Source: Deltaproteobacteria bacterium (lineage in GTDB: Bacteria > Bdellovibrionota > JACOXK01 > 2-02-FULL-40-11). From it: a stretch of DNA of 64,000 nt. How positions within the stretch are numbered: the first letter of the stretch is position 1; every line of letters begins with the position of its first letter. The stretch lies in the NCBI GenBank assembly GCA_016198185.1, contig JACQJD010000046.1, forward strand, positions 9,242-73,241, read 5' to 3'. The position numbers and the translations under genes are program-made. Of the stretch, positions 4,865 to 36,859 are shown piece after piece. The notes under the pieces were generated by a model. It ran no database searches. It had not been told where the DNA came from and saw only the letters and a list, made by a program, of their open reading frames with translations.

Positions 4865-4866
4865 AA

Positions 4867-5165
4867 GGAAAGCCTCTAAATCTGGTTTTATCAGAGGAAA
4901 ATTTATTTACGTAAATCTAATAATTTTACTCCTTGGAGATTGACTGATAAACCACGCGGTCAAATGACCCTGCAAGTCATTTGCCGCTCAGCTCTCGGCC
5001 TCGCTCTTTTTTGTAAAGCCACAAGTGGCTGCGCACTTGTGGCTTTACAAAAAAACCATGCCCGCTCGGCCTGCGAGATGGGTTTATCAGTCAATCTCCA
5101 AGGAGCTACGTCATAGCTTATTTAAATAAATTTCCCTCTGATAAAACCAGATTTAGAGGCTTTCC
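4867..5165. repeat. About 300 bp nested (three-level) palindromic element between convergent genes
   Basis: Outer arms of about 44 bp (4867-4910 versus 5120-5165). Middle arms are a perfect 25 bp (ctccttggagattgactgataaacc / ggtttatcagtcaatctccaaggag). Inner stem is a perfect 18 bp (tttgtaaagccacaagtg ... cacttgtggctttacaaa). Confidence 0.6.
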
Positions 5166-8651: not shown

Positions 8652-9800
8652 TCAAAAAGAAAAATGGGCTTTTTTTGACTTATTCATGGGGGGATCCTGA
8701 ATCTTGTACAGTTGCGATATTTTTTTCCACACATGATAATCTTCTGGAATCAGCAAACTCAATGCTTCCCCTGAAGCCCCTGCTCGAGCGGTTCTTCCAA
8801 TGCGATGCACATAATCTTCTGGCACAAGCGGTAAATCGTAATTAATCACGTGCTGTATGTGAAGAATATCTAATCCTCTCGCAGCAATGTCTGTGGCCAC
8901 CAGTATTCTACTTTTATTGGCTCGGAAATCTCGAATTGCATTCATGCGTTGCGATTGAGACAAGCCTCCATGAATTCGATCTACAGGTAATTTTTTCTCT
9001 CTTAAAAAGAATGCCAATCTATCTGTCCTGCGCTTTGTTCTCGTAAAAATCAGAACGGATCCATTTCTTTGACGTAATGCATTTAACAGGGTTTCATTTT
9101 TGGTGCTTGCAGTTGTTTGAATGGTAGATTGTTTAACTTCTTTTACGGGTTGTGAAGCAACCCCCACACTGACATACGTAGGATTCTTTAAATATTTTTT
9201 TGTCATCTGTTCAATATCACTTGGAAATGTGGCTGAAAAAAGAACCGTTTGCCTAGCATGCGAAAGATGTCGAAAAATCTCTCTAAGTTGTTGCGCAAAT
9301 CCCATGTCTAACATTCGGTCTGCCTCATCAAGTACCAAAAATTTAGTTTTGTGCACAAACAGAGTTTTCTGATTGAGATGATCAATGACCCTACCGGGCG
9401 TTCCAACGATAACACGTGGTCTTCTGGATAGGTCCCGAATTTGATTGCCCATCGATGCCCCACCGATCAGAAGAACTGTTTTGAGCTCCGCAAAAGGGGC
9501 TGTCATTTTTTTTAAAACCCCCATAATTTGAAAAGCCAACTCACGTGTGGGCACCAAAATAAGCGCTGACTGTTCATGGTTTTTCAATAAATGACAAATT
9601 AAAGGAATGCTGAAAGCAGCTGTCTTTCCTGTTCCAGTCTGAGCACATCCAATAAGATCTTTACCCGCTAAAACGTGAGGAATGGCTTTTTCTTGAATGG
9701 GTGTTGGAGCATAAAAATTCATTGCCTCTAAGGCTCCAAGAAGTTTTGGAGGCAACTCCATATGTTTAAAGTTATTCATAAGGGGGGCACTATAGCACAA
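8652..9800 (-). CDS. DEAD-box ATP-dependent RNA helicase
   Basis: Motif I 'AQTGTGKTAAF', motif II 'VLDEAD', 'SAT', and motif VI 'HRIGRTARAG'. Confidence 0.9.
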   Translation of the reverse strand: MCYSAPLMNNFKHMELPPKLLGALEAMNFYAPTPIQEKAIPHVLAGKDLIGCAQTGTGKTAAFSIPLICHLLKNHEQSALILVPTRELAFQIMGVLKKMTAPFAELKTVLLIGGASMGNQIRDLSRRPRVIVGTPGRVIDHLNQKTLFVHKTKFLVLDEADRMLDMGFAQQLREIFRHLSHARQTVLFSATFPSDIEQMTKKYLKNPTYVSVGVASQPVKEVKQSTIQTTASTKNETLLNALRQRNGSVLIFTRTKRRTDRLAFFLREKKLPVDRIHGGLSQSQRMNAIRDFRANKSRILVATDIAARGLDILHIQHVINYDLPLVPEDYVHRIGRTARAGASGEALSLLIPEDYHVWKKISQLYKIQDPPMNKSKKAHFSF

Positions 9801-9825
9801 CTATTTACAAAACGGGAAATAAAAA

Positions 9826-9965
9826 AGAAGCTTTCGATCTTATTCATTCCATTTGGCCAGCCGATGTTTCTGGAAAAAATAATTTTCTGACTGCCTATGA
9901 AGACGCACTAAAACAATCGAATTTTTATCCGGGGTTTGAAAAACAACTTAGGCTGTCACAATAAC
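9826..9965 (+). pseudogene. C-terminal remnant of a paralogue of the 13498..14373 secreted-protein gene
   Basis: Translates to AFDLIHSIWPADVSGKNNFLTAYEDALKQSNFYPGFEKQLRLSQ*, which aligns with the last 45 aa of the 13498..14373 ORF. No upstream coding sequence remains. Confidence 0.5.
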
Positions 9966-10025
9966 ATCATAGGCCTTGGAATGTTGTTCAATACGATCCA
10001 CTTGTTTATCGAAAACCTGACTCCT
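9948..10025 (-). pseudogene. C-terminal remnant of a paralogue of the 34727..35545 gene
   Basis: The minus strand encodes ...IEQHSKAYDVIVTA*, identical to the C-terminus of the 34727..35545 ORF. It overlaps the plus-strand remnant tail-to-tail, as in the intact locus. Confidence 0.5.
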
Positions 10026-11248
10026 CAGACAGAGAATTGAACCCCCGCTTTCGCCAGGCGAGCATACAGAATCAATCCCAACGCTGTCGACGGAGTCCAA
10101 AAACCACCCTTCAAACTCGAAAATGCATCGGCGTTTTCCACCAAACATAACGCGGACTCGCAGCTCAGCACTGCCGTCGCCTTGTTGCCCGGATCGCCCG
10201 GATACGACATCTCAAACTGCGAGACGAGCTCCTTGCCGCTGTAAGCATAAAACTGTGCGCGGAAAAATCCGTTTTCTTGAACGTCCGGCGAAGGACCCTG
10301 CCCTGACTTCACTCCAAATTTCTTTAAAAGTTTGAGGACCCACGGGTTGCGTCCCACGCGATAGAACGCTGCTGCGCCAGCCACATAGGCCCAGGCCTTT
10401 GCCGCAGAGGCGCCCTTAGACAAGCGCATAAGTTCGACGTACTGAAAAGATCCCTGATCTCCGGCTGTCTTCCCCAAACGCAAAGCCTGCGATCGATAAA
10501 CTACTTTGGAGTTGATCGGCTCCATGAAAAACGGAGGAGCTGTGACACCGGCGGCTGGAACCCATACTGGTTTTTTTACCTCGGGATAGTTAAACTTGAC
10601 GCGCGCGTCCTTTGGAACCAGGAGCGAAAGATTGCGCAACCGTTGCTGATCGTCGTTGCTCAATGCCAGCATATCCAGCATCGTTTCATACGTCCCGCCA
10701 TTGATTCCTCCGCGCACAGAAAACAGACTCACAACTTTAGTCACCGGACGCAAAGCATCCTTTTCGCGAGCCAGCTCCACGACCCACCAGGCACCCAGAT
10801 CCGATGGCACGGAATCGAAGCCTGAAAATGGGATCAGGATCGCTCCGCTTGCCGACGCCTGAGGCGCGTATTTTTCGATCATCCGCTCAACCCAGAGAGG
10901 CTCGCCGGTGATGTCCAGGTAGTGCGTCCCGAGCTTTGCACAGGCCGCGACGATGTTTTCTCCGGAACGTCCAAAGGGCCCCGCGTAGTTGATAGCGACT
11001 CGGGTCTGCGAGATCAGATTGTGCACGCCTTCCCCGTCTGCGTGATCCACGATCACATATTCAGCGGGCTGTGATTGGAAAGGACGAAGGACTTCCTTCA
11101 GACGATCCATTTTGTCTCGGCTTCGCCCTGCCACCGCCCATCGGACTTTTCCAGAAACATTTCGGGCGAAGTACTGGGCGGCTACCTTTCCTGCAAAGCC
11201 GGCCGAACCAAAAACGATCAAATCAAATTTACGGGAACTTTGTATCAT
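10025..11248 (-). CDS. Saccharopine dehydrogenase-like NAD(P)-binding oxidoreductase, on a GC-rich patch
   Basis: N-terminal 'FDLIVFGSAGFAGKVAAQYF' Rossmann motif; 407 aa. GC is markedly higher (about 55-60%) than the roughly 40% surroundings. Confidence 0.6.
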   Translation of the reverse strand: MIQSSRKFDLIVFGSAGFAGKVAAQYFARNVSGKVRWAVAGRSRDKMDRLKEVLRPFQSQPAEYVIVDHADGEGVHNLISQTRVAINYAGPFGRSGENIVAACAKLGTHYLDITGEPLWVERMIEKYAPQASASGAILIPFSGFDSVPSDLGAWWVVELAREKDALRPVTKVVSLFSVRGGINGGTYETMLDMLALSNDDQQRLRNLSLLVPKDARVKFNYPEVKKPVWVPAAGVTAPPFFMEPINSKVVYRSQALRLGKTAGDQGSFQYVELMRLSKGASAAKAWAYVAGAAAFYRVGRNPWVLKLLKKFGVKSGQGPSPDVQENGFFRAQFYAYSGKELVSQFEMSYPGDPGNKATAVLSCESALCLVENADAFSSLKGGFWTPSTALGLILYARLAKAGVQFSV

Positions 11249-11467
11249 TTGAAGTTGATAACACTACAGACATAAACTTAGAAGATTTATTCTGTTTTCT
11301 TTTGGTTTGAATATTTATCGCGATAAAAACCGAAAATATATAGTGTTCAAAATTTGAATCGGACCATGGAAAATAGCGGCTCTCTTTCCCCATAAATTGA
11401 CATCCTAGAATTTGTCGTCAATTTTTTCGATAGCTTAAAGTTAAGATGAATTATGCACTACGTGCAT

Positions 11468-11629
11468 AATTCCCCCGAGCCCTAAAAGGGCGAGAGGGGC
11501 CCCATGCGTTGGGGAAAGATTTTGAATATTGTCAGGATGGAAGGCAGCCCGTCATGCCGAGCGTTAGCGAGGCATCTCGGTGTTTAAGCCAAGGTAGTAG
11601 CGTCATTCCGAACGAAGTGAGGAATCTCT
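11468..11629 (+). repeat. Array of three CCGAG..CGAGG mini-palindrome variants (plus orientation)
   Basis: aattcccccgagccctaaaagggcgagaggggcccc; cgtcatgccgagcgttagcgaggcatctcgg; cgtcattccgaacgaagtgaggaatctct. Confidence 0.6.
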
Positions 11630-11674
11630 ACGCAAATAGAATGTAGTGACTGCCTTTTGGTAAAAAGAAATGCT

Positions 11675-12157
11675 CTATTCTCCTCCTCCATATTTCACTG
11701 ATGACTCTTTTATAGGACTTATCTTTTTACCTAAAAAATCACAGATATAAGCTGTTACAATAAATTCTCCAAAGGTCGTACTTTCCAAAAAAACTGGAAC
11801 ATGCATATTTTGATTTTCTTCCAAGAAAGAAAATTTATGTTTTTTTTCATAAAGTATTTCAATTTTATCTTTTACTTTCTTTTGAATTTTAATAAAAACT
11901 GAATCTGCCTTTGTTGATGTATTCTTATTCGCCTCTATAACGAATAATGTGCGATTTGATGGATGCTTTAGGCTTCCCTCTCCAATCGATGAATTCCATA
12001 TATTGAAATCCGGATTAAAGATATTTTCAGACCATCCCCCAACACCATGGTAATACAAAAAACCTTTGACAGATAAAATTTCTGGAACTTTCTCTTGCGC
12101 AGCGAATAAAGGAAAGGAAAAGAGAAAGAAAGTTAGAACAAGAAAATATGTTTTCAT
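11675..12157 (-). CDS. Hypothetical small secreted protein
   Basis: Signal peptide MKTYFLVLTFFLFSFPLFAAQ (start taken at the internal Met of the 172-aa ORF). Flanked by inverted mini-palindrome arrays. Confidence 0.45.
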   Translation of the reverse strand: MKTYFLVLTFFLFSFPLFAAQEKVPEILSVKGFLYYHGVGGWSENIFNPDFNIWNSSIGEGSLKHPSNRTLFVIEANKNTSTKADSVFIKIQKKVKDKIEILYEKKHKFSFLEENQNMHVPVFLESTTFGEFIVTAYICDFLGKKISPIKESSVKYGGGE

Positions 12158-12219
12158 CAGCGATTTATAGCAAAGCATATCGATATAGATCAATAATTTT
12201 TGAAGACTTCCAATTCACA

Positions 12220-12401
12220 GAGATTCCTCACTTCGTTCGGAATGACAATATTACTCTGGTATACATCGATGAGACCCCTCACTTGCGTTCGGGGTGACGT
12301 GTCTAAGCTTATCCTGGCTTGCAGCCCAGTCTTTCCCTGGTGCGGGGAGATCCTCTCGGCTCTTCGAGCCTCGGGATGAATTAGCGCACATGCGCTAATT
12401 C
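12220..12401 (-). repeat. Mirror-image array of CCGAG..CGAGG mini-palindrome variants plus a perfect 24-bp palindrome
   Basis: agagattcctcacttcgttcggaatgac (reverse complement of the copy at 11601), gagacccctcacttgcgttcggggtgacg, ggagatcctctcggctcttcgagcctcgggatg, then gaattagcgcacatgcgctaattc. Confidence 0.6.
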
Positions 12402-12530
12402 AATCTAACTATCCTTCCCCTCCCCAAAAACCTCAAAAAAAGCCCCTGTTTCTACCAGCCAGACTGTGACAATTGGCCTCGTATTTAAGCCCTTGCTGTT
12501 GGCCCATGGAGACCGAATTTTTCGATAGTC
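12385..12530 (+). repeat. About 140 bp conserved 'P' element (copy 1), candidate small RNA or mobile module
   Basis: Near-identical to 33318..33462 (...ctaactatccttcccc...gcccctgtttctaccagccagact...ggcctcgtatttaagcccttgctgttggcccatggagaccgaatttttcgata). Both copies sit about 30 bp upstream of a hairpin element. Confidence 0.55.
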
Positions 12531-12557
12531 CTGTAGAGGGTATTTCGGCCTTGATAA

Positions 12558-12645
12558 GGTGTTCGCGTAGCGCGCGGTGTGGCGGCCCAGGACGCGTGCT
12601 ACGCGAACACAACCAAGTCCTTAGAAATATTGACTTTTTCTTTTC
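12558..12645 (+). repeat. Hairpin element A (type-1 arm / core / type-1 arm / type-1 tail)
   Basis: ggtgttcgcgtagcgcgc - ggtgtggcggcccaggacgcg - tgctacgcgaacac, then the tail aaccaagtccttagaaatattgactttttcttttc. Confidence 0.7.
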
Positions 12646-12706
12646 AACTCTCTTATGAGCCATTATATTTACTGACACGAAATTATTCTTTTGTTAATTT
12701 TCACAT

Positions 12707-13510
12707 GTGGCTGGAATAAAATTTCCAAAAATTAAACTACCGAAACTAAAGTGGCCGGAAAAACCACGTCAAAAAACATCGAAAAAGACATCGTCAAAAG
12801 AAAAGAAAGTACATCCTTGGAGACTCTGCCCACTGGGCCAACATTGGGTGCGAACTCATCCCATGCACGTGCCTCCAAGCAAGAAAAATCCTGCAGGCTC
12901 TGTTACCTCTCGTAAAGAACATTGCGCAAGAAATCCAACAGGTAAAGATCAACTCTATCCCGACGAAATTCTTGAAATGACAGATAGACATTTTTCTAAA
13001 GCCACAGAACTCCCCTGCCCTTTTAATTTAGGATTTTCAAAAGGGAATGATTATGACTTATTAATTGCGGGATGGACACAATACTGGAATGAGATTCTTA
13101 AGTCTGAGATTCCCCTGGGAAAAAATCTGGTTAAAGCTTTGATCGCAAGTGAATCTGGCTTTGATCCCAAAATTTTAGCAAATAAAAAAGATTCTAATAG
13201 TGCTCGCGGACTGATGTAAATCACCAATGCCACGCGAAAAATATTAGGGAATGAAAAGGGCGAACTTAAAGAACATTATATTACTGTCACTAAGGAAGAT
13301 CTCAATAATCCAAATATAAATATATGCACCGGCATACGTTGGCTCTTTCATAAACAAAAATTGGCTTCAGCGAGATTAAGGCGAAATGCCTCATGGGAAG
13401 AGACTATTTTTGAATACAAAGGTGGCAGAAGCACTTCTTCATCTCGGGCCAATAAGTTAATGGACAAGTTTCGAGAATGTCTCGTAAAGTTTGAGATGTG
13501 TGTAAAAAAA
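12707..13510 (+). pseudogene. SLT-domain lytic transglycosylase disrupted by one in-frame TAA
   Basis: 'ALIASESGFDPKILANKKDSNSARGLM*ITNAT...NPNINICTGIRWL' is an SLT signature (catalytic ES..., GLMQ). TAA at 13217-13219 occupies the Q (CAA) position of GLMQ. The frame continues to 13510. Confidence 0.65.
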
Positions 13511-14373
13511 TAAAAAAATATTTTTTATTCTTTGGTTTTATTTTAAGTATTTTGCTGACCAGCGATACGGCCAATCTATTCAAGGTTGTTTACAAAGGAG
13601 ATCCGTTGTGTCAGGAAAATACAATATTGATAGAACAAAAGCATGACCATGGTTATGACATCACCGTCTCAAGAGCCGAAGACTGGATATGTCAATCCAT
13701 CGATATCAAAAAAAATGGAAAATTACTTTTCCATAATGAAGAAATTGGCGGTTACTATTTCTTAAGTGATAACTTCGAAGAACATGGCAACCCATTCTTT
13801 TTTTTACCCGGTAATATCAATCCCCATTTTGTATTTTCCAAATGGACAGGGGGCGCCCATTGCTGCTATTCCCTTCATATTTTTTCATTGGGTCAAGATT
13901 TTCGAGAAGTAGCCGCAATTGAGGGTGGAAACTCCCAACCCATTCTTAAAGACCTCGATGGAGATCACATTCCAGAAATTGAAGTTTTAGATGATTTTTT
14001 AGCCTACCTTTTTTCAAGTTTTGCCACCTCAGCTTACGGGGCTGTCATACTGAAATATTCTAATGGAAAATATTATGTAGCAGCAGACATTATGAAAAAA
14101 CCGCGACCCCATTCCAATCTCTGGAAATCTAAAATTTATTCTTGGAAAAATGACTTACGTAAAAAAGGTCCAGAATGGCCTCCCCCGTCTCTCATCCAAA
14201 CCATGACAGATTTAATATTTACAGGAAATAAAAAAGTAGCTTTCGATCTTATTCATTCGATTTGGCCACCCGAGGTTTCTGGAAAAAATGACTTTCTATC
14301 TGAGTATGAAAAAGCATTAGCACAGTCCAATTTTTACCCAGAATTTGAAAAGAAACTTAAGCTGTTACAATAA
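13498..14373 (+). CDS. Hypothetical secreted protein ('gene A' family, the intact copy)
   Basis: 291 aa with GTG start and N-terminal hydrophobic signal. The C-terminal 45 aa recur as remnants at 9826 and 34667. Confidence 0.45.
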   Translation: MCKKIKKYFLFFGFILSILLTSDTANLFKVVYKGDPLCQENTILIEQKHDHGYDITVSRAEDWICQSIDIKKNGKLLFHNEEIGGYYFLSDNFEEHGNPFFFLPGNINPHFVFSKWTGGAHCCYSLHIFSLGQDFREVAAIEGGNSQPILKDLDGDHIPEIEVLDDFLAYLFSSFATSAYGAVILKYSNGKYYVAADIMKKPRPHSNLWKSKIYSWKNDLRKKGPEWPPPSLIQTMTDLIFTGNKKVAFDLIHSIWPPEVSGKNDFLSEYEKALAQSNFYPEFEKKLKLLQ

Positions 14374-14451
14374 TCCAAACCATGGTTCCGCAGAAAGATC
14401 TCCTAGAAATATTTTTCTATCTTCTTCATCTGCGATTTTCTCTCCTAATAA

Positions 14452-14826
14452 TTAAGCACGATTTTTGAGCTCTTTGGCCTCTTTAAAATTTTTTAATAGT
14501 GCACTCGAGCGAGCCAATACTTCCCATTTATAAGCCTCATCAAAATCTTTTTTATCGGGGGATTCATCTGTGTATTTTTCACAGAGTTTTGCATGCTGCA
14601 ATGCCAAATTCGATTCACGCAAATGACAACAGATGCGACTTATTAACCAATGCCCTCTAGCCAAATGGAGTGCAGTTCCTCCACATTTTTTCCACAAATA
14701 AAAAGAGGCATAGGCAGATGCAAGCATTTCAAGATCTTCACCTAGATTCAACTCTTTCTTTTGAAGATAATTCCAAACCTGGTTATTGGCTTCTATGGCA
14801 AGTTTTTTTATTTCAGCGTTTTCCAA
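14452..14826 (-). CDS. Hypothetical protein
   Basis: 124 aa ORF with no recognisable motif. Lies between 'gene A' and hairpin element B. Confidence 0.35.
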   Translation of the reverse strand: MENAEIKKLAIEANNQVWNYLQKKELNLGEDLEMLASAYASFYLWKKCGGTALHLARGHWLISRICCHLRESNLALQHAKLCEKYTDESPDKKDFDEAYKWEVLARSSALLKNFKEAKELKNRA

Positions 14827-14854
14827 TACAATTTTTCCTTATTGTGAAACCTAG

Positions 14855-14941
14855 CATTTCGACCAGCGCGCGGTGTGGCGGCCCAGGACGCGCGCTACGC
14901 GAACACCACCAGGTCCTTAGAAATATTGACTTTTTCTTATC
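14855..14941 (+). repeat. Hairpin element B (type-2 left arm / core / type-1 right arm)
   Basis: gcatttcgaccagcgcgc - ggtgtggcggcccaggacgcg - cgctacgcgaacacc - accaggtccttagaaatattgactttttcttatc. Confidence 0.7.
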
Positions 14942-14953
14942 AACACCTCACTT

Positions 14954-16123
14954 TTACTTCAGTAAATAATCCTTATAGAAATCCAAGATCGGTAAAACTT
15001 TAATTCGTTGATCTATTTTTCTGGCCTTATCAAAAAGACCGATAACCAAAGCCTCTTTGCATGAATATTTTTCTAAAAAAGATTTTAATCCATTTAAATC
15101 TTTTGGATGAAGCGTTGAAGAAAATTTAAACTCACATGCCAAAAGCCCCTGAGGCGATTCCCAAACCAAATCCACTTCTACGCCTCCGTGTGTACGCCAA
15201 TAATACAATTCCCCTTTTTTCTTTTGATAATGTAACTGCTTAATAATTTCCAAAATCATGACATTTTCAAATAGACGCCCTTCATCAATTGGTTTCTGTG
15301 CTAAAGCTTGCGCAACCCCTACATCAAAAAAATAAAATTTATGCCCCGTAAAAAGTCGTTCACGTGCTTTTTTTAAGTATGGATCTAGGCGGTGAACAAT
15401 GAGTGTATCCTCTAAAATTTCATAATAACTTTTAATGGAGGGGGGACTTAGACCCACATCTCGTCCCAATGTAGAATATTGAATAAGCTGACCTAATTCT
15501 TCTGCAGCCAATGATAAAAAATGAACAAACGCAGCTCAATTTCGAGTATTGGCTTCGGCCTCTATTTCTTCTTTTAAATAAATATCTGTGTAATATTTTA
15601 GTTCCTCCTCTGGCTTTTCGGTACGAATAACCCCTGGTAAAAGCCCCTCCTTAAAAACCCTTCTTAATGCCTCAAATCCAACATTATTCTTTTCCAGTAA
15701 ACCTAACTCCACAAAAGATAATGGAAATAATTTCGCGCTGTGAATCCGACCTGGGAGTAAATTTACTTTTTTTTGTCTTAATTTCCTTGCGGAAGATCCT
15801 GTAATGAGCGGAATCAAAGCATTTTTATGCTTATCTAGTAAAACTTGAAGATCATCCAATAGCTCTGGAAATTTTTGAATTTCATCAAGAAAAAGATAAA
15901 GGAATTTATGCTTGTCTAATGCCGCCTCTATTTCTTCTGAAAAAAGAGAAGCTTGTCTTTGCAGTCGTAAATATGTCGCTCGACTATTAAAATTGTAAGA
16001 AAGCACGTTCCCCTTTTCTTTTAAAAATTGCTCGATAAGGTACGTTTTACCTACCTGCCTAGGACCTAAAAGAAAAAACCCCTTCTTAAACCTTGAAATG
16101 TCAATCTGACGCTTAAAATCCAT
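14954..16123 (-). pseudogene. AAA+ ATPase (AAA_14 + DUF4143 type) interrupted by a single in-frame TGA
   Basis: Walker A 'LLGPRQVGKTYL' in the upstream part (15536..16123) and a DUF4143-like C-terminal part (14954..15511) lie in the same frame, separated only by TGA: ...EANTRN*AAFVHFLSLAAEELGQ. Confidence 0.65.
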
Positions 16124-16321
16124 ACTTTCATTTTACATAAGTAATTTAAAATATCAACTTGAATTATTTTACGGGAAATGGTTGACATTAGGCATTTATT
16201 AGGCTAACAAAGATTTTTATTGTAGATATTGAACAATATCCATGGGTGGTTCCATTTAGAGAAACAAAAACAGAAATCTTTTTAATTACAGCATTTCCTG
16301 ACAGAAGATTAAAGGAGGAAT

Positions 16322-16645
16322 TTGGTTATGAAAACTAAATTGACAATATATGAAAAACAAATTTCTAAAGATATTTCTGAAAAAAAATATCAATCTCTAC
16401 CAAAGTCTGTTCAAAAACAGTATGCTCAAATGGCAAAAGAAGATATTCAAAGAAGAAAAACGGTAAGAAAGGAAGCCAGAATTAACATCAGACTTGTCCC
16501 TGAGGAACTCGAATCACTCAAAGAAGCAGCAGAGTCAGAGGGAATTCCTTATCAAACGCTCGTTTCTAGTATTATTCATAAATATTTAACAGGTACTTTA
16601 ATTGATTTAAAAAATGCTGCCGCATTAAAAAAAATAATGAAATAA
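16322..16645 (+). CDS. BrnA-like ribbon-helix-helix antitoxin
   Basis: 'RINIRLVPEELESLKEAAESEGIPYQTLVSSIIHKYL' matches the BrnA/CopG antitoxin core. No BrnT partner is found upstream. Confidence 0.5.
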   Translation: MVMKTKLTIYEKQISKDISEKKYQSLPKSVQKQYAQMAKEDIQRRKTVRKEARINIRLVPEELESLKEAAESEGIPYQTLVSSIIHKYLTGTLIDLKNAAALKKIMK

Positions 16646-16649
16646 AAAC

Positions 16650-16790
16650 TAACAGCAGCTTACCTTTATTTGAAAGTTAATAATTGATCGACCTCCATTA
16701 AACTCTCTTTAAGTCTTTTATAAGACGACGCAGAAAAAATAGCATGCCCTATTCTACCTCAATAATCGACAGCCTCAGGAATAGGTTGAT
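16650..16790 (-). pseudogene. 3' fragment of an ATP-grasp paralogue
   Basis: Shares the ...cctattct(a/g)cctc(a/g)ataatcgacagcctcaggaataggtt... segment with the 3' end of the 21174..22403 ATP-grasp gene. Confidence 0.4.
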
Positions 16791-16794
16791 GCGG

Positions 16795-16890
16795 GGCAGA
16801 CAGATCTGCTATGAATTATACCTTCAAGCTACTACAACACGTAAGGGCGGAAAATGGCGCCCTCAAATGATCAAAAGAATACTTGATCGA
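16795..16890 (+). pseudogene. Last about 30 codons of a serine-recombinase-like gene (copy 1 remnant)
   Basis: RQICYELYLQATTTRKGGKWRPQMIKRILDRP*, matching the C-terminus of the 35583..36023 ORF. Confidence 0.4.
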
Positions 16891-16935
16891 CCATGATCGA
16901 TCTGTTGATTTCAGCAAGAAAAACGCGATATTGTT

Positions 16936-17101
16936 TTATTGATGAAAACCAAAGAAGAAAAACGCCCCAAAGATATTGCGTATTTGGATACAAACGTTAT
17001 CAGTTTTTATTTTGACACAAGACCCGCGATTCAATTGATGCGCGATGCCACTCGTCAGTGGTGGGAAGAGAAAAGCAACGCTTATTATTTGTGTACTTCC
17101 T
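16936..17101 (+). pseudogene. PIN-domain gene with internal deletion (copy 1)
   Basis: MKTKEEKRPKDIAYLDTNVISFYFDTRPAIQLMRDATRQWWEEKSNAYY... aligns to the N-terminus of 36046..36576 but stops after about 55 codons. Confidence 0.5.
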
Positions 17102-17119
17102 ATGCTTAGGAGAATGCAC

Positions 17120-17384
17120 GATGAAGACAAAAATAAAACCAAAAAAATTGGTCATGGGAAGACATGAAAATCCAGTTGACTTCTTTAGACGTGTAAGAAT
17201 GGCCATTATGGAAGAGTTTGATAACGATATTTATAAATATGGCGCCTATTTAAGAGAAAGAGAAAAAGAGCACAAAGACCGGTTGGTGGATGTCGAAAAA
17301 CTACGAAAGCTTGGAATTATCTCAACTCAAATTTACACAATATATTTTACACCACCATCTTTTCAGCATACGTTTATTGTTTGA
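17120..17384 (+). CDS. Small conserved partner protein of the PIN module (copy 1)
   Basis: ...PVDFFRRVRMAIMEEFDNDIYKYGAYLREREKEHKDRLVDVEKLRKLGIIS is about 80% identical to 36573..36794. Confidence 0.5.
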
Positions 17385-20766: not shown

Positions 20767-21044
20767 ATTTTGAATCTTTTCAGTATACGTTCCGGTTTGC
20801 CATCCCCGCGAAGGGCGAGGATCTTTTGTTCTTTGTTTTAATTTTACCATAGATTTCGAAGAAGAAAGAGTGTTTTAAATTAAAATTGGATGAGAAAATT
20901 TTTGCAGTTTATCTCCTCCCTATTTAAGTATTTTTTCTAATTCTCGGCAGTCTATTTTACGGTTATTCGTGTAAGTCAAAATAAGATAGGCTTAGGGTAC
21001 ACATTCAAAGAACCCACAAAATCCATCGATTGGGATCATAAGCT

Positions 21045-21143
21045 GGCTTTGGTCAGGTGTTCGCGTAGCGCGCGGTGTGGCGGCCCAAGACGCGCGCTGG
21101 TCGAAATCTCTAAGGCCGTGTTAAATCTACGTTTTTTCTTCTC
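21045..21143 (+). repeat. Hairpin element C (type-1 left arm / core variant 'caaga' / type-2 right arm and tail)
   Basis: gctttggtcaggtgttcgcgtagcgcgc - ggtgtggcggcccaagacgcg - cgctggtcgaaatctctaaggccgtgttaaatctacgttttttcttctc. Confidence 0.7.
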
Positions 21144-22981: not shown

Positions 22982-23164
22982 ATTGAAGCAAAAAGAAACA
23001 AAGAACGATAATAAAATAATTCTTAAAATGAAAATTCATATAAACAACTCATTTTCAAGGGATATGAGCAATTATACCCTAAGCACAAAGAAAAAGAAAA
23101 GTTTTTTGTTTGTGTTTTTAATAATTTTTTAATCCATTTTTAATTTTCCTATTTAAAAAAATTC

Positions 23165-23215
23165 TGAAAAATTCTGGGGGGAAATTCTGGGGACACGATA
23201 CTTAATTCATCTTTG
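23165..23215 (-). repeat. Inverted copy of the 'gataagtattgtgtcccc(a/c)gaattt' repeat
   Basis: The reverse complement reads gatgaattaagtatcgtgtccccagaatttccccccagaattttt. Confidence 0.45.
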
Positions 23216-23365: not shown

Positions 23366-23372
23366 ATGCAAT

Positions 23373-30189: not shown

Positions 30190-30624
30190 TGGCAAAAAAC
30201 TGTGGGGAATACTGATCAACATTAGATTTAATTGTCCATACAGTGCTCTTAAAATTTCACTGTTCTATATCGGTGCCAGCTTACCTGCTCAAACGTCCAA
30301 ATGCAAAAGTGGCTCGACACCATTTACAAGAGATAATCACACTTTTGGGCTGCCAACTCTGGCAGCCCATTCCCACCTTTTTTAAAAGGTTTTTTCATTC
30401 CACGCCCTTTATTTTTTTTCAAAAAAGACACTCTTTCACCGTAAATTGACACCCTAGAATTTATCGTTACTTATTTTTTCAGCTTAAAGTTAAGATGTAA
30501 CCTTGAATATCGCTCCCATTCCAAAGTCTAGGCAGATCGTTTGGAAAATTAAAGTACGTGTAACAACCTTCAAGAAGATAGTTATTGAGAAAAATATTTT
30601 AAAGAGAGTGAGCCAAAACAATAA

Positions 30625-31629
30625 TCAAATTCTGATTTCTTTTTCTAACCACGGAATATGCTCATGCTTCCGCTTCCACCACAAATCCTCCCAAATATAA
30701 TGTACAGCAAGCTGTTTGTATTTCCCGTATCGCTCAAAATGTTTGAGAAGTTGTGAGACTGGAACAGGATTTTCAGGATTCCGATTGAAGAAAAGTTTGG
30801 AGTAAATTTTCTGTTCCCACGGCGAAACATGGTTGAAAAAGTCCAAATGGTGAAAAACGTCAAAGAGCAAATACCATACAGTTGCAGGGCCAACGCCATA
30901 CAATTTCAGCAATTCTGTCATTTGTGCTTCGCGGTCTTGTTTTCTCAATTTGTATTCGTCAATTAGGCCCTGCGAAAAATTATCATCCATTTTTCTAATT
31001 GATTTAGCGCGATAACCAACTTTGAGAGTGCGTAAATCATCTATGCTTACATTTTGCAATCTTCCCGGACTCCAAAAACACCAGAGTTTTTTGTCGTCAA
31101 ATTCCAGCAAAGTCCCGTAATTTTCCAAAAGTGCCTTGAACATTTGAACGGATCGACGCACCGAAGCATTTTGCAAGACAATCCCAATAATCAAATACTC
31201 ATAAAGTGAACTTGGATGTCCGGGGCGCATACCGCGCCATTTTTTAAAAATAGGGCCAAGAACGGAATCTTTGCTAAAGCTTTTGTAGAAATCCTCAAGG
31301 TCGAGATTAAAGTTATAGCGATATTGAATTTCTTCGATGAGTGAGTCTACGAATTCTGCTAATAATTTCTCCTTTGCGTAAACCTTAATCTCGATAAGCG
31401 GATTTGCGATAGTTCCTTTGCTGGAAAATTTGATACCAAGACATTTTTTCCGCCAATTCCAAGTTTGCCAGCGAATGCCTGGCTCCCAGTAATTATCGCC
31501 TGAAGTGAAATGGTCGGGTTTATGAAAAGTGGGGTCAAAAGCAAATGGTTTCGTCGGTTTTACTTGTGCTGTTTTTTGAAGTTTAAGCTTGATTGTTTTT
31601 TTCATTTTTTTACTGGATAAATCCGCCAA
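30625..31629 (-). CDS. HhH-GPD superfamily DNA glycosylase (OGG/AlkA-like)
   Basis: Helix-hairpin-helix 'LLKLYGVGPATVWYLLFDVFHHLD' with a downstream Asp, plus an N-terminal beta-domain-like region; 334 aa. Confidence 0.5.
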   Translation of the reverse strand: MADLSSKKMKKTIKLKLQKTAQVKPTKPFAFDPTFHKPDHFTSGDNYWEPGIRWQTWNWRKKCLGIKFSSKGTIANPLIEIKVYAKEKLLAEFVDSLIEEIQYRYNFNLDLEDFYKSFSKDSVLGPIFKKWRGMRPGHPSSLYEYLIIGIVLQNASVRRSVQMFKALLENYGTLLEFDDKKLWCFWSPGRLQNVSIDDLRTLKVGYRAKSIRKMDDNFSQGLIDEYKLRKQDREAQMTELLKLYGVGPATVWYLLFDVFHHLDFFNHVSPWEQKIYSKLFFNRNPENPVPVSQLLKHFERYGKYKQLAVHYIWEDLWWKRKHEHIPWLEKEIRI

Positions 31630-31790
31630 TAAGAATAGAGGATAAACTAATCAGAAAACCAAAATCGTGCATTGAAGTACAATACCATAACCAAAAAATG
31701 TTTCAATTGATCCCAATTGCAAAAATAACGAAAATATAGGCGTATGAAACAAACTTGACACAAATATTATTTTGAGTCAAAATAGTTTCA

Positions 31791-32366
31791 ATGAAGAAAT
31801 CTATACCTAAAAAGCTTTTAAATAGGCCCTTCTTAGTGAAAGAGGCTTTGGCTTGTGGCTTAAGCAAGGTCTATCTTACTCGCATGGTCAAATCTGGAGC
31901 GCTGGAACGCCTAAGCCGGGGGGTTTATCAAGTGAGTGGAGTTGATCAAGGCACCCCTGAAGAACTTTATAGAGTTGCCACACTTCGGTGCGGAATGCCG
32001 TCAGCGATATGTCTTTTGTCAGCACTAGACTATTACCATGTGACAGATCAAATTCCTAAAAAGACATGGGTCCTTGTTCCTCAACGTAAACGTGTATCAT
32101 CAAAGGATTTAAAGCTTATTCGATCTCGTAATCCCCTATGGAAAATTGGGATTGTAAAAACAAAAGACTACTGGATTACAAACCTAGAGCGTACTCTTGT
32201 TGAGTGTCTGATATACAAGAGATGGATCGGCAGCCAAGTGGCACTTCTTGCACTGAAACAGGCACTATCAGAAAAAAAAGTGAAACTGAGCAATGTATAC
32301 GATGTGGCTAAAAAGATGGGTGTCCAACACAGAATTTATTCTTATATTGAGGTATTGACGTCATGA
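31791..32366 (+). CDS. AbiEi-like antitoxin (pair 2)
   Basis: 'FLVKEALACGLSKVYLTRMVKSGALERLSRGVY' winged-helix region; 4-bp overlap with the downstream DUF1814 gene. Confidence 0.65.
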   Translation: MKKSIPKKLLNRPFLVKEALACGLSKVYLTRMVKSGALERLSRGVYQVSGVDQGTPEELYRVATLRCGMPSAICLLSALDYYHVTDQIPKKTWVLVPQRKRVSSKDLKLIRSRNPLWKIGIVKTKDYWITNLERTLVECLIYKRWIGSQVALLALKQALSEKKVKLSNVYDVAKKMGVQHRIYSYIEVLTS

Positions 32367-33220
32367 ATCGCGAAAAGGAAAAACAAATACATCGTTCTAT
32401 GAAAACCCTTGTGAAAAAAGATCCTCGTTTCAATATTAACGAGGTTCGAATTATCGTTGCCTTAGAACGTGCCATTGCTCGGTTATCACAAAATAAAGAT
32501 TTAGCTGAGCATCTTATATTTAAGGGAGGCTTTGTACTTCTCAAAAATTATGAGAGTCTGCGTTTCACAAGGGATGCGGATGCCTTGGCCACGGCCATTT
32601 CCAAAGATAAATTAAGAGATTTTGTCTGTAAGGCTTTAGAGAGGGATTTGGATGACGGTCTGTGGTTTGGTGATGTTCAAGTTCAAGAACTAACCGAACA
32701 GGGAGAGTATGGGGCTTATCGTTTTGATTTTGCTTTCCAAATCGGAGAACCTGATCTTAAAAAGATTCATAAACTCTCACGAATTCACATTGATGTTGGT
32801 TTTAGCGATAAGCTCCCAACAAAGCCACAGAATCAACTCATGCCTTCGGTTTTAGAATATGAAGAACCCATTACCTGGAAAATCTATCCTATCGAATATA
32901 TTGTTGCTGAAAAAATTCAGACCTTCTTTGATCGAGGTTCTACAAACTCTCGGGCAAAAGATATTTACGATTTAATTTATCTTTTTCCACGTTGTCAAAA
33001 TCAATATGAGCTTATACGAGCCATTGAAAATACATTTAAGAACCGGGGAAGCATTCTTCCAGAATCATTCGTGAATGAGGCCAGTCAGCTCGATATAACG
33101 TTTCTCACTCATGCTTGGCCAGGCGTGCGTATTCTTGAAAATAAGCTAGACTTTAACGAAACATGGAAATTGTTGATAGAATTTTTCAGAAAAATAGATC
33201 TCATGCGAACGGGAAAATAA
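32363..33220 (+). CDS. AbiEii-like nucleotidyltransferase toxin (pair 2, DUF1814)
   Basis: 'LIFKGGFVLLKNY...RFTRDADAL' DUF1814 signature; 285 aa. Confidence 0.7.
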   Translation: MNREKEKQIHRSMKTLVKKDPRFNINEVRIIVALERAIARLSQNKDLAEHLIFKGGFVLLKNYESLRFTRDADALATAISKDKLRDFVCKALERDLDDGLWFGDVQVQELTEQGEYGAYRFDFAFQIGEPDLKKIHKLSRIHIDVGFSDKLPTKPQNQLMPSVLEYEEPITWKIYPIEYIVAEKIQTFFDRGSTNSRAKDIYDLIYLFPRCQNQYELIRAIENTFKNRGSILPESFVNEASQLDITFLTHAWPGVRILENKLDFNETWKLLIEFFRKIDLMRTGK

Positions 33221-33317
33221 CATAAGAAAAAACATCGTTAACAACTCCTGATTTTGTGGAAAATTACCGAAATTGGAGAGCCTGCTTCCACTGAAAATTC
33301 AGACTGTGGAATGATGA

Positions 33318-33462
33318 AGTTCAATCTAACTATCCTTCCCCCCTCCCAAAAAATCTCAAAAAAGCCCCTGTTTCTACCAGCCAGACTATGGCAATCGGCC
33401 TCGTATTTAAGCCCTTGCTGTTGGCCCATGGAGACCGAATTTTTCGATATGTACCTATGAGG
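33318..33462 (+). repeat. About 140 bp 'P' element (copy 2)
   Basis: About 90% identical to 12385..12530, again followed by a hairpin element. Confidence 0.55.
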
Positions 33463-33473
33463 GTAACCTATTG

Positions 33474-33572
33474 CTTTGGTCAGGTGTTCGCGTAGCGCGC
33501 GGTGTGGCGGCCCAGGACGCGCGCTGGTCGAAATCTCTAAGGCCGCGTTAAATCTACGTTTTTTCTTCTCAA
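33474..33572 (+). repeat. Hairpin element D (type-1 left arm / core / type-2 right arm and tail)
   Basis: Near-identical to element C (...gctttggtcaggtgttcgcgtagcgcgcggtgtggcggcccaggacgcgcgctggtcgaaatctctaaggccgcgttaaatctacg...). Confidence 0.7.
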
Positions 33573-33746
33573 CTCAATAATATAATGTGCATACGCCTAT
33601 CCACTGTAAAACTTGGTATGCTTTTTTATAAGAATCTGCTTAATCTTCTCAATAAACTGTTTTGTCTCTTCTAAAAACTCTTCACACTCTGTATTTGAGA
33701 TTGAACCAGCATAATCATAGTCAGTCAAATTTCTTTTATTTCGACA

Positions 33747-34043
33747 CTAATCAAAATAGATGGCCTCATCTTTAAACTCGCCCTTATTGTAATGACGTAA
33801 AAAGAGAAACGTATTGGCATGATGCCCATAACCACTGATTCGGTATCCCTCACAATGTAGCAGAGCTGTTACCGTTTGAAGAGCAGCATTGTAAATGATC
33901 GCAAAACGTCGATCCGCACTTAAATCTTTAATGGCAGCATCTTCCAGGTCTCTGTCAACGATACTAAAAAGATCATAGATTTCCTTTTCAGTCGTTTGAT
34001 GTGTTTTAAGAACGCCTTTATTTAATAAATCTTTTAAACTCAT
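33747..34043 (-). CDS. HEPN-domain toxin-like protein (HepT-like)
   Basis: 98 aa with an R-x5-H motif (RISGYGHH). Overlaps the upstream MNT gene. Confidence 0.45.
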   Translation of the reverse strand: MSLKDLLNKGVLKTHQTTEKEIYDLFSIVDRDLEDAAIKDLSADRRFAIIYNAALQTVTALLHCEGYRISGYGHHANTFLFLRHYNKGEFKDEAIYFD

Positions 34044-34671
34044 CTTCCTTCCCTATTAAATAAACTTTCTTACCTAAGGCAACCTGTCTAACGAAATTAT
34101 CAGACTTCTTAAATTTATCCAAAAACTCTTTTTCAGAATACAAATGGGCGTTGATTTCTCGCCCTGTTTTTTCTGATATCTTTTGCGTCGTTGATGACAA
34201 AAGCTTTGCCCCTACAGAGCCTATAATCATGAGATCGATATCACTTTGGGGCATATCTTTACCTGTCGCCAATGAGCCAAATATAAATGAAAACCTAACC
34301 TTCCCCAACTTCATCAGATGCTCTTGAATAAGTCCCCCAATGGCTTCTGTTTTAAGGATGATTTTCTTTAATTCATTAAAAAGCATGAAGTCTTGGTTCG
34401 CCTTAAAATAGACCCTATTCCCAGACCGGGTAGAGGCTAGAAAACCGATACTGACAAGCTTTTCAATCTCTTGCTGAATAGCCCGAATCGGAACCCCTAA
34501 AAGGCGCTCCAGCTCTCTTTGATAAAAGGATTTTTCAGGAGACATGACAAACAAGGACAAAAGCTTAACCCTCGTTTTTGAAGAAAATAATGTATCTAAC
34601 GCAGTGCTCATATATGTATATATTTTATAGTCAATTGTATATAAAACATAGTCATTGTCAAGGGGAATCAA
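34018..34671 (-). CDS. Minimal nucleotidyltransferase (MntA-like) with an N-terminal wHTH
   Basis: 'FIFGSLATGKDMPQSDIDLMIIG' is the MNT GS..D.D motif. The N-terminal 'KTRVKLLSLFVMSPEKSFYQRELERLLGVP' is an ArsR/MarR-like wHTH. Confidence 0.6.
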   Translation of the reverse strand: MIPLDNDYVLYTIDYKIYTYMSTALDTLFSSKTRVKLLSLFVMSPEKSFYQRELERLLGVPIRAIQQEIEKLVSIGFLASTRSGNRVYFKANQDFMLFNELKKIILKTEAIGGLIQEHLMKLGKVRFSFIFGSLATGKDMPQSDIDLMIIGSVGAKLLSSTTQKISEKTGREINAHLYSEKEFLDKFKKSDNFVRQVALGKKVYLIGKEDEFKRFIK

Positions 34672-34745
34672 GACGCGCTATGAAGTATTAAACAATCGAA
34701 TTTTTATCCAGAGCTTGAAAAACAACTTAGGCTGTCACAATAACA
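34667..34745 (+). pseudogene. Third remnant of the 'gene A' C-terminus
   Basis: ...aaacaatcgaatttttatccagagcttgaaaaacaacttaggctgtcacaataa matches the end of 13498..14373 but is frame-disrupted. Confidence 0.45.
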
Positions 34746-35545
34746 TCGTAGGCTTTGGAATGTTGTTCAATGCGATAGGCTTGTTTACCAAAAAATTCCA
34801 TCAATGTGCATTCGGTATTGTTTTTGAAATATTCGAGATTTTCTGTCTTTAAGACCACTGCCAAAAAAGGAGACTCTTTTTTGTAAGAAACATCTCCCAA
34901 TGTTGCACGCGCTGTATCAGTGATCCAGATTTTACTTTGATCATGAAGCGTTATCTCGCCATGATGATTTTTACGCTCAAGAAGCTCTTCTAAAATAGGA
35001 CCCAATTTTTGTGACCGATCCCATAAAACAATACCTAAAACATGGGTGCACTCATTGTCATGTTTTAAGCTTAAACGACTTTTTCGCTCTCCCAAAACGG
35101 GGTCCGTTTCATACTCTGTAAACCAAATTTCAATCCCAGGATACAAAGGTTTCCTAAAAAAAATAAAATTCCAACCCGGGAGAGATGCCGTCGAATTATT
35201 TTTCCAATCATAGTTTTTATGTACGTATTGAATATCGTATTTCTTAAAAGAGGCTTCTTTTTTAGTGAAGAAATTCTTTAGATTTTTGTTCACTCGAAAA
35301 GACACGCCTGTCGGATATGGCTGTTGGCCAATTTCTTTTTGCGTTTTCAAAAAAACGTCATCATTTTTAATTTCCACAAATTCAAGATATTTCTTATCCC
35401 CGATGGCTAAAAATCGACACAGTTGCCCACCTTCGTGTTCAACGACATGTTCAGACTGAGTAGAAAATCCTAATTTTTTAAAACGCTCATACTGTTCACA
35501 TGATATCCATCGTGAAAATGCATGGTCATATCCAAATTCAAACAT
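34727..35545 (-). CDS. Hypothetical protein ('gene B' family, the intact copy)
   Basis: 272 aa. The C-terminus ...RIEQHSKAYDVIVTA recurs at 9948..10025. Convergent 3' overlap with 'gene A' remnants. Confidence 0.45.
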   Translation of the reverse strand: MFEFGYDHAFSRWISCEQYERFKKLGFSTQSEHVVEHEGGQLCRFLAIGDKKYLEFVEIKNDDVFLKTQKEIGQQPYPTGVSFRVNKNLKNFFTKKEASFKKYDIQYVHKNYDWKNNSTASLPGWNFIFFRKPLYPGIEIWFTEYETDPVLGERKSRLSLKHDNECTHVLGIVLWDRSQKLGPILEELLERKNHHGEITLHDQSKIWITDTARATLGDVSYKKESPFLAVVLKTENLEYFKNNTECTLMEFFGKQAYRIEQHSKAYDVIVTA

Positions 35546-35559
35546 AAAGTCAGTTTCTC

Positions 35560-35676
35560 CAGGTGTTCGCGTAGCGCGCGGTGTGGCGGCCCAGGACGCG
35601 CGCTACGCGAACACCACCAGGTTCTTAGAAACATTGACTTTTTCTTTTCCACCCCTCTCGATGATCCAGCTCTTTT
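35560..35676 (+). repeat. Hairpin element E (type-1 / core / type-1, long tail)
   Basis: aggtgttcgcgtagcgcgc - ggtgtggcggcccaggacgcg - cgctacgcgaacacc - accaggttcttagaaacattgactttttcttttccacccctctcgatgatccagctcttttgg. Confidence 0.7.
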
Positions 35677-35699
35677 GGGTTTTTTATACAACAATCAAG

Positions 35700-36023
35700 G
35701 ATTATCTGCATCTCGTCGCCCATAGTTTCAACCATTCAAAATCATTCGTGCTGGGCCTGCTCAAGCAATATAAAATTTCCCTAAGACCAAAACATGATAA
35801 CGTTGGCAAGAACCCCAATCAGCCTTTCGGCTATCAGATTTACCACGGAAAAAGATGCAAAGATAAAAATAAACAAAAAACCATAGATCTAATCCGAAAT
35901 CTTCACACAGCAGGACAATCCTTCAGACAGATCTGCTATGAATTATACCTCCAAGATATTACAAGGCGTAAGGGTGGAAAATGGCACCCTCAAATGATCA
36001 AAAGAATACTTAATCAAGCATGA
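35700..36023 (+). pseudogene. Truncated large-serine-recombinase-like gene (C-terminal 'recombinase' segment only)
   Basis: '...LIRNLHTAGQSFRQICYELYLQDITRRKGGKWHPQMIKRIL' matches the '...G.S.R.IA..LN..GIPTPRGGKW..STV.RIL' segment that follows the catalytic domain of serine recombinases. The catalytic N-terminus is absent, and the ORF N-terminus is made of hairpin-element sequence. Confidence 0.5.
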
Positions 36024-36045
36024 TCGATCTGTTGATTTCGGCAAG

Positions 36046-36576
36046 ATGAATGCGATATTGTTTTATTTGATGAAAGCTAAAGAAGAAAAACGTCCCAAAG
36101 ATATTGCATATTTGGATACCAACGTTATCAGTTTTTATTTTGACACAAGACCTGAAATTCAATGGATGCGTAACGCTACCCGTCAATGGTGGGAAAAAAG
36201 AAAACAGGATTTTTACGTATGCACATCGGAGGCTGTTGTCGGCGAACTGGAAGATGGAGGTTATTTGCATCAGCCAGAAGCCGTTAAGCTCGTAAAATCC
36301 ATTGCAGTTTTGCCAGGAAACGACTCAGTAGACAACATTGCCCAATATTATATTGAGCACTATTTAGCGCCGAAGGAAAATATCCAACGTTTTCGTGGAG
36401 ATGCAATTCATCTGGCAATTTGCGCTTTCTATCATGTCGATTATTTGCTAACATGGAATTTGAAACATTTGGCGAATGTAAATAAATTCAGACAACTTAA
36501 AATTATGAATGCTCGCATGGATTTATCAACGCCAATTATTACAACACCAGCACAACTTTTAGAGGAAACTATATGA
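36046..36576 (+). CDS. PIN-domain (VapC-like) protein
   Basis: 'IAYLDTNVIS', 'CTSEAVVGELE', 'GDAIHLAICAF' and 'LLTWNLKHL' give the conserved acidic quartet layout of PIN nucleases. Confidence 0.6.
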   Translation: MNAILFYLMKAKEEKRPKDIAYLDTNVISFYFDTRPEIQWMRNATRQWWEKRKQDFYVCTSEAVVGELEDGGYLHQPEAVKLVKSIAVLPGNDSVDNIAQYYIEHYLAPKENIQRFRGDAIHLAICAFYHVDYLLTWNLKHLANVNKFRQLKIMNARMDLSTPIITTPAQLLEETI

Positions 36577-36794
36577 AAGCAAAAAAACAAAAATCTCAAC
36601 TAGCAATACGTCAAGGAGAAGACCCCATTGAACATCTGAGACGCGTTAGAGCGGCCATTCTTGAACGATTTGATAATGATGTCTACAAATATGGCGCCTA
36701 TTTAAGAGAGAAAGAAAAAGAACACCAGGATCGGTTGGTGGATGTCGAGAAACTTAGAAAGTTGGGAATTATATCAACCAAGAAAATACCATAA
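36573..36794 (+). CDS. Small conserved partner protein of the PIN module (copy 2)
   Basis: 73 aa; ATGA overlap with the PIN gene; conserved in copy 1. Confidence 0.5.
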   Translation: MKAKKQKSQLAIRQGEDPIEHLRRVRAAILERFDNDVYKYGAYLREKEKEHQDRLVDVEKLRKLGIISTKKIP

Positions 36795-36859
36795 GTTTTT
36801 TTGTGAAAAAACTTCCAGGATAACAAATTATCGCTACCCTGGAAGTCAATGATATTTTT

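Follow-up and report, generated by a model that had tools for sequence, protein, structure and literature searches.

Genes that converge on one another, overlap at their 3' ends and recur as fragments raise the question of whether they belong together as a functional pair or merely share a history. We followed up such a case in a stretch of 64,000 nucleotides (nt), hereafter the window, from a groundwater metagenome-assembled "Deltaproteobacteria bacterium" (assembly GCA_016198185.1, contig JACQJD010000046.1, positions 9,242 to 73,241 of the forward strand). Two genes are at issue, A and B, whose products are identical to HY390_03640 and HY390_03745, respectively, encoded on a 73.4-kb contig of this bacterium. 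Their relatives mostly carry the labels Bdellovibrionota, Bdellovibrionales or Bacteriovoracaceae, which would place the host in that group. A preliminary description labeled A secreted and B cytoplasmic, which agrees with a signal-like N-terminal helix in A and none in B. It also reported both genes or their tails at three loci and proposed that they form a module found in three states of decay. The three loci do hold homologous gene remains; nevertheless, the window contains ordinary duplication and gene-loss debris in an unstable region, not a special two-gene device.

Gene fragments at three loci

A is whole in the window only at locus 2 and B only at locus 3 (Table 1). The stops of A and B converge with a 17-nt overlap at locus 1 (9948-9964) and locus 3 (34727-34743), and the 18-nt junction motif CTTAGGCTGTCACAATAA occurs 3 times in the window against 0 in shuffled sequence, twice without mismatch (9947-9964 and 34726-34743) and once with 2 mismatches (14356-14373). 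In-frame similarity continues far beyond this short motif, so that the condition under which the preliminary description would have given up gene decay, a shared 3' motif alone, does not hold. The A tail of locus 1 matches that of locus 2 at 83% over 153 nt (9812-9964 and 14221-14373, E 2e-35), and a tblastn search aligned A residues 237-291 to 9797-9961 with 71% identity over 55 amino acids (aa) (E 5e-20); the A relic thus begins at 9797-9812 rather than at 9826, where it had first been placed. Loci 1 and 3 share 89.5% identity over 105 nt (9911-10015 and 34690-34794). If a 9-nt indel is allowed, their homology covers 9897-10015 and 34667-34794, just outside of which only 6 of 25 positions are identical. 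For the B tail of locus 1, identity is 70% over 27 aa (E 2e-6) and complete over the final 13 aa. The overall divergence between loci 1 and 3 is about 10%, but only 3 positions differ within the last 54 nt of A.

Decay of the A copy at locus 1, as originally proposed, is borne out by the codon changes counted over the last 56 codons of A. Among intact A genes, the ratios of synonymous to nonsynonymous changes are 14:8, 14:7, 12:8, 10:4 and 10:3, compared with 9:16, 5:11, 6:10 and 10:11 between the locus 1 relic and intact A genes. This nonsynonymous excess places the relic under relaxed constraint.

Beside the B relic of locus 1 lies a GC-rich gene for a saccharopine-dehydrogenase-like oxidoreductase, whose N-terminal NADP-binding domain is present (PF03435; 51.8 bits, cutoff 25.1). 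This open reading frame (ORF) is compositionally foreign, with a GC content of 54.6% and a GC content at third codon positions (GC3) of 58.8%, compared with a GC3 of 30-41% in neighboring genes, and the GC steps fall at both of its ends. The B remnant had been described as ending exactly where this gene begins, as if the gene had replaced the body of B. The two do abut, but B homology ends at 10015, leaving about 10 nt to the stop codon of the dehydrogenase-like gene; replacement is consistent with the data, although the join is not exact. The GC-rich gene is most simply read as a horizontal acquisition followed by trimming of its flanks. Plasmid-borne relatives of its product are about 33% identical, a search for a donor identified none, and a sequence search of solved structures returned no match. 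The locus 1 tails now form the spacer that separates this oxidoreductase gene from a DEAD-box helicase gene. The relics most likely have no function of their own.

Colinear units and the origin of the copies

Loci 2 and 3 each belong to a larger duplicated segment, and the two segments are colinear, a point absent from the preliminary description. Self-comparison of the window delimits two paralogous units, 2 and 3, which share six anchors in the same order, with the A tail in the matching relative place in both. Anchor identity ranges from about 72% to 91% and is mostly near 83%, so that the units are about 16% different at the anchors; the offset between them is 19.0-20.9 kb, with 13 kb of other DNA in between. 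Between the anchors, unit 2 carries the A gene, a stop-containing gene for an SLT lytic transglycosylase directly upstream of it, and an unknown ORF of 124 aa, and unit 3 carries B, the A stub and a pair of HEPN and MNT genes (HEPN/MNT).

We consider it probable that the three loci are paralogous leftovers of a single ancestral SLT-A-B block that was multiplied within a larger segment and then underwent complementary loss. The ancestral block would have had the SLT gene followed by A, with B converging on A through the 17-nt 3' overlap. It would have been multiplied as part of the larger segment, yielding the two colinear units and a third copy that has been almost wholly erased, possibly by recombination between the palindromic repeats of about 100 nt that flank the block. 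Redundant copies would then have lost different parts through deletion and insertion. In copy 2, A would have been kept while the SLT gene gained a stop codon and unrelated DNA replaced B right at the A stop. In copy 3, B would have been kept while the HEPN/MNT pair replaced the SLT gene and most of A. Copy 1 would have been reduced to the two overlapping tails, with the horizontally acquired oxidoreductase gene on one side and the helicase gene on the other.

Several points weigh against this history. No genome was found in which A and B are both intact, and the SLT-A-B ancestor is reconstructed rather than observed. Locus 1 has no flanking anchors, and its membership in a third unit is drawn from the junction alone. 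Against the intact A of the window, the A tails of locus 1 and locus 3 show 12 and 11 differences in 54 nt, respectively, versus 5-7 in 54 nt against the A genes of other genomes; as these tails are no closer to the local A, the copies may be old or separately acquired instead of products of a recent duplication in place. From the sequences, related blocks may therefore have arrived separately, and the 54-168 nt of alignment are insufficient to order the paralogs. The contig is also metagenome assembled, and the junctions and the SLT stop codon rest on that assembly.

An alternative is that mobile elements insert at the A/B 3' junction carrying a gene tail of their own, which would make the orphan tails attachment (att)-type direct repeats that bound inserted DNA instead of decayed gene copies. 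All three A tails are indeed in direct orientation, and almost all of the island described below falls between loci 1 and 3, with core genes outside; however, what units 2 and 3 have in common is not the A tail alone but ordered anchors to its left and right, and locus 1 is found 5' of the intact A, the wrong side for an insertion there. The 3' flank of A does look prone to insertion. In the close relative L008, a tyrosine-recombinase-like gene (960-1607, minus strand) runs toward A and shares 9 nt with the A stop region, suggesting an insertion hot spot, and in every close relative the sequence changes 0-19 nt past the A stop. In the window, however, no integrase gene adjoins any copy, the only recombinase being a serine-recombinase fragment, and the tails are of unequal length, with 168, about 80 and 62 nt shared. 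We regard integration as an unlikely origin of the tails.

The proposal that A and B work as a module, for example, coupled through their overlapping convergent 3' ends and decaying as a multicopy pair, is much harder to reconcile with the genomic record, and we consider it very improbable. Scanning genome contigs with a profile of A yielded 80 loci in other genomes, none of which has a B homolog within 6 kb, and none of five B-family loci has A or the SLT gene within the 4-5 kb of neighborhood sampled. No intact pair emerged among the 80 A loci, around the five B homologs or in the neighborhoods of the nearest A homologs (L008, L009, L010 and L011), and the junction pattern had 0 matches in metagenome contigs. 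The overlap is identical at two junctions in the window, and a four-codon C-terminal extension of A that spans it is present throughout the close clade, as coupling would predict, but most A homologs stop before that extension, and A and B each persist without the other in the window genome itself. The conserved partner of A is instead the upstream SLT gene, and the adjacency of A and B is a lineage-specific accident of neighborhood.

Traces of that adjacency nevertheless extend beyond the window. In L011, the closest genome, about eight codons of the B tail are kept after the A stop before the sequences diverge and a split methyltransferase gene follows, so that the A-B junction must be older than the divergence of the two lineages. 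At locus 2, the 3' end of A encodes on its minus strand IIVTA and a stop, corresponding to the last five codons and stop of B (which ends in VIVTA), and local alignment with shuffles gave no significant B relic beyond the A stop. Retention of B codons only inside A would be expected had selection kept A while everything past it was replaced. In L009 a different sequence follows the A stop, of which 19 nt are common to locus 2. What lies downstream of A thus varies even among its nearest relatives, which speaks against a module. Judging from these flanks, B has probably since been lost in L011, L008 and locus 2.

That the junction is a terminator-like or structured RNA repeat, or an assembly artifact, is barely credible: the exactly common core is short and the contig comes from a metagenome bin, but 55 A codons and 22-27 B codons match in frame, the junction folds no better than shuffled sequence on either strand (z -0.15 to +0.09), a terminator scan found no terminator-like site inside it, and copies that differ by 10-20% are not collapsed or duplicated reads.

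Table 1. Coordinates of the A and B loci, the paralogous units and associated features in the window
Feature	Position	Strand	Evidence and remarks
Locus 1 A relic, last 55 codons and stop	9797..9964	+	tblastn 71%, E 5e-20; nonsynonymous excess; without start codon; begins ~20 nt upstream of helicase start
Locus 1 B relic, last ~22 codons and stop	9948..10015	-	89.5% nt identity to 34690-34794; weak tblastn extension to 10031; 17-nt overlap with A relic
Saccharopine-dehydrogenase-like oxidoreductase gene, GC-rich	10025..11248	-	Pfam PF03435 (Sacchrp_dh_NADP), E 1.3e-13; abuts B stub
Paralogous unit 2	11382..17366		blastn and tblastx self-comparison; six anchors
Paralogous unit 3, colinear with unit 2	30431..36818		blastn and tblastx self-comparison; six anchors
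Anchor 1	11382-11448 (unit 2); 30431-30497 (unit 3)	direct	67-nt repeat, 84% identity; leftmost; follows a GC-richer gene each time (10025-11248; 28025-30189)
Anchor 2	12399-12650 (unit 2); 33320-33575 (unit 3)		
Anchor 3, A tail	14312-14373 (unit 2); 34683-34743 (unit 3)		
Anchor 4	14858-14949 (unit 2); 35566-35657 (unit 3)		
Anchor 5	16797-17126 (unit 2); 35924-36259 (unit 3); in a wider delimitation 16723-17126 and 35850-36259		
Anchor 6	17121-17348 (unit 2); 36573-36799 (unit 3); in a wider delimitation 17121-17366 and 36573-36818		
SLT lytic-transglycosylase gene, conserved partner of A	12707..13513	+	Pfam SLT; in-frame TAA 13217-13219 in GLMQ; 16-nt overlap of its stop with the start of A
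Locus 2, intact A, 291 aa	13498..14373	+	N-terminal signal-like helix; last 17 nt encode IIVTA and stop on minus strand
HEPN-like/MNT nucleotidyltransferase pair	33747..34671	-	Pfam Polbeta, NTP_transf_2, NCBIfam MntA; occupies place of SLT and A body in unit 3
Locus 3 A relic, last ~19-25 codons	34667..34743	+	aligns locally with locus 1; tblastn E 0.005 for residues 273-291 of A; between HEPN/MNT operon start and B stop
Locus 3, intact B, 272 aa	34727..35545	-	Cytoplasmic; predicted two-module VOC/glyoxalase-like fold, AF2 pLDDT 90.1; family ~60
GC-rich palindromic repeats of ~100 nt, one orientation	12548-12650, 14844-14949, 21046-21143, 27830-27920, 33473-33575, 35552-35657	+ (12548-12650)	Self-comparison

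Protein A with its SLT partner, and protein B

Although the debris is ordinary, families A and B are uncharacterized. A belongs to a family of at least 50 proteins with invariant motifs that include WTGGAHCC and DDFLAYxFSSFA, and no Pfam or NCBIfam model matches it. Its structural model (pLDDT 88.7) has a beta-rich N-terminal half and a C-terminal half of five helices, so that A is predicted to be a secreted beta-plus-helical protein. A profile search of the family against PDB sequences returned nothing. Membership in the lysozyme inhibitor family PliI found no backing in the PF16743 model, which did not match A and hit 1 of 36 family members at E 0.061. We also considered a phage lysis cassette and dropped this reading because viral contigs contained no A relative.

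The SLT gene was surveyed in loci L004-L048 together with 12707-14373 of the window. It lies directly upstream of A in about 33 loci, with a stop/start overlap in those examined. Reading the premature stop as Q, the SLT domain of the window scores 42.4 bits against a cutoff of 21.3 for PF01464 and retains the motif IASESGFDP with the catalytic Glu-Ser. The reading frame itself is interrupted by a TAA where L011 and relatives have CAA, the Q of GLMQ, and this codon is intact in the L011 ortholog, which is 87% identical. The intact A of the window thus has a broken SLT partner, barring a consensus error at the TAA, and this too is absent from the preliminary description. The same holds for about 10 of the 33 loci, in which a truncated, frameshifted or stop-containing SLT gene stands beside a full-length A, with assembly errors in metagenome-assembled genomes being possible. 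The N-termini of SLT homologs are basic, lack a signal peptide and share an HPWRxCPxGxHW...H.C motif, which by its sequence is possibly metal binding, and A homologs all have a signal-like N-terminus. At four-fold degenerate sites, the SLT-A pair differs by 0.27-0.35 between the window genome and L011 or L009, a divergence that, like those among the copies, dates the events only loosely. The flanks are unrelated in 279 of 300 locus pairs, suggesting that SLT-A is a mobile two-gene unit.

By its conservation, SLT-A rather than A-B is the putative functional pair. A signal-less enzyme, a partner with a signal-like N-terminus and broken SLT genes beside full-length A together suggest an enzyme and its periplasmic protector. 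We therefore raise, as a speculative and on balance doubtful possibility, that SLT-A is a mobile enzyme-protector module of Bdellovibrionota, in which a lytic transglycosylase with a His/Cys-rich N-terminal motif would be neutralized by a translationally coupled periplasmic A with a new inhibitor or immunity fold. If true, this would explain the survival of A beside broken SLT genes and in unrelated neighborhoods. A literature search for a Bdellovibrio self-protection pair against a lytic transglycosylase returned nothing on the SLT-A family. Peptidoglycan hydrolases with periplasmic protectors are otherwise known from the lysozyme inhibitors PliI, PliC, PliG and Ivy, the type VI pair Tse3-Tsi3 and the Bdellovibrio pair Bd3459-Bd3460. 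A belongs by sequence to none of the inhibitor families and is much larger than PliI, with an extra helical domain. Such pairs serve only as a lead for SLT-A. As a directly testable candidate for a cell wall enzyme with its protector, SLT-A is the sole lead of wider interest from this locus.

Protein B has no Pfam or NCBIfam match, although its model (AF2 pLDDT 90.1, pTM 0.89) points clearly to the vicinal oxygen chelate (VOC) superfamily. Foldseek returned 205 PDB matches at E <= 0.001, of which the top ones are all VOC proteins (best 3p8a, E 2e-8, probability 1.0, TM 0.62), including 4-hydroxyphenylpyruvate dioxygenase (HPPD) and extradiol dioxygenases. B is accordingly modeled as a two-module, glyoxalase-like fold of paired beta-alpha-beta-beta-beta modules, the architecture of these superfamily members, whereas its sequence identity to solved ones is only 8-12%. 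A profile search recovered about 60 relatives, one of which UniRef names "Glyoxalase-like domain-containing," and PF13468 (Glyoxalase_3) matched 10 of 38 of them weakly (best E 0.0017). Residues H37, E55, H109, E144 and E146 are invariant in the family alignment and may include the metal-chelating His/Glu site typical of the superfamily. Within this family B is the most divergent member, with about 30% identity and two insertions. Two uncharacterized families thereby gain confident models, A, which is SLT linked in relatives among predatory bacteria, and B, with its divergent VOC fold.

The island and its likeness to known systems

All three loci lie in a variable island of 27 kb (9.8-36.8 kb), rich in toxin-antitoxin genes, whose GC content is below that of its flanks, which consist of housekeeping genes. 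Locus 1 is at the left edge and unit 3 at the right, and the borders are the DEAD-box helicase gene on one side and, on the other, a gene for a signal peptidase, after which come an ECF-sigma gene and a tRNA-Asp. The island encodes two AbiE pairs, the HEPN/MNT pair and BrnA-like and PIN-like genes, along with a serine-recombinase fragment of 146 aa (35583-36023), an ATPase gene in two pieces and an ATP-grasp/MFS pair duplicated in inverted orientation. The split gene (14954-16123, minus strand) comprises an AAA_14 ORF (15536-16123) and a DUF4143 ORF (14954-15511), which normally form one ATPase gene, and is probably a frameshifted pseudogene; this ATPase type is also found downstream of A in L017 and L036. 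The inverted duplicate (21174-27863) consists of ATP-grasp ligase and MFS transporter pairs (21174-22981, minus; 25510-27863, plus) around AbiEi/AbiEii (23373-24967), with the first MFS copy truncated to 193 aa. Other features of the island are a 190-nt inverted repeat (11439-11629 and 12219-12410, 68%) that brackets a small secreted ORF without a family (11675-12193, 172 aa) and a 1158-aa ORF (17374-20850, minus) without a Pfam match. Outside the island, self-complementary stretches occur at 4866-5166 (about 300 nt, 71%) and 50280-50371 (92 nt, 90%).

The palindromic repeats border differing gene blocks and flank the SLT-A block in both units, with 12548-12650 forming the left flank in unit 2. 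Each has a perfect 18-bp stem, GTGTTCGCGTAGCGCGCG/CGCGCGCTACGCGAACAC, and a hairpin fold with a z score of about -6 against shuffles (-6.2 for 12548-12650). They belong to no Rfam family, an Rfam scan of the window having returned two tRNAs and nothing else, and they are absent from the roughly 90 other loci compared; L011 has a different GC-rich palindrome at the corresponding spot upstream of the SLT gene. We rejected an integron/attC reading of these repeats. Their arms run GTT...AAC, the reverse of the attC order R''(RYYYAAC)...R'(GTTRRRY), the scanned island ORFs include no IntI-type integrase, and the cassettes would be 2-7 kb with genes on both strands.

For annotation, the locus is a warning that a common junction is not a module. 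It also shows that a single foreign gene can sit flush against a gene stub. Integrating elements are well known to duplicate the 3' end of a target gene, as do prophage e14 and phage 21 at icd in Escherichia coli and islands at tRNA genes. The orphan tails resemble such duplications in their direct orientation near the island borders and in the recombinase gene at the A stop in L008, but differ in having homology on both sides of the tail, no integrase at the window sites and one tail upstream of the intact gene.

The closer likeness is to segmental duplication with reciprocal (complementary) loss in bacterial islands. The copies here are unlike typical cases in being old (about 10-20% diverged) and 13 kb apart, with a third copy of only 220 nt, and duplication in place or separate acquisition could each underlie them. 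As in such islands, however, paralogous segments are colinear, each gene is retained in one copy beside truncated relics, and toxin-antitoxin genes, repeats and split genes abound in the surroundings. The window thus offers a worked example of how duplicated island segments decay complementarily and how in-frame gene stubs end as intergenic spacers.

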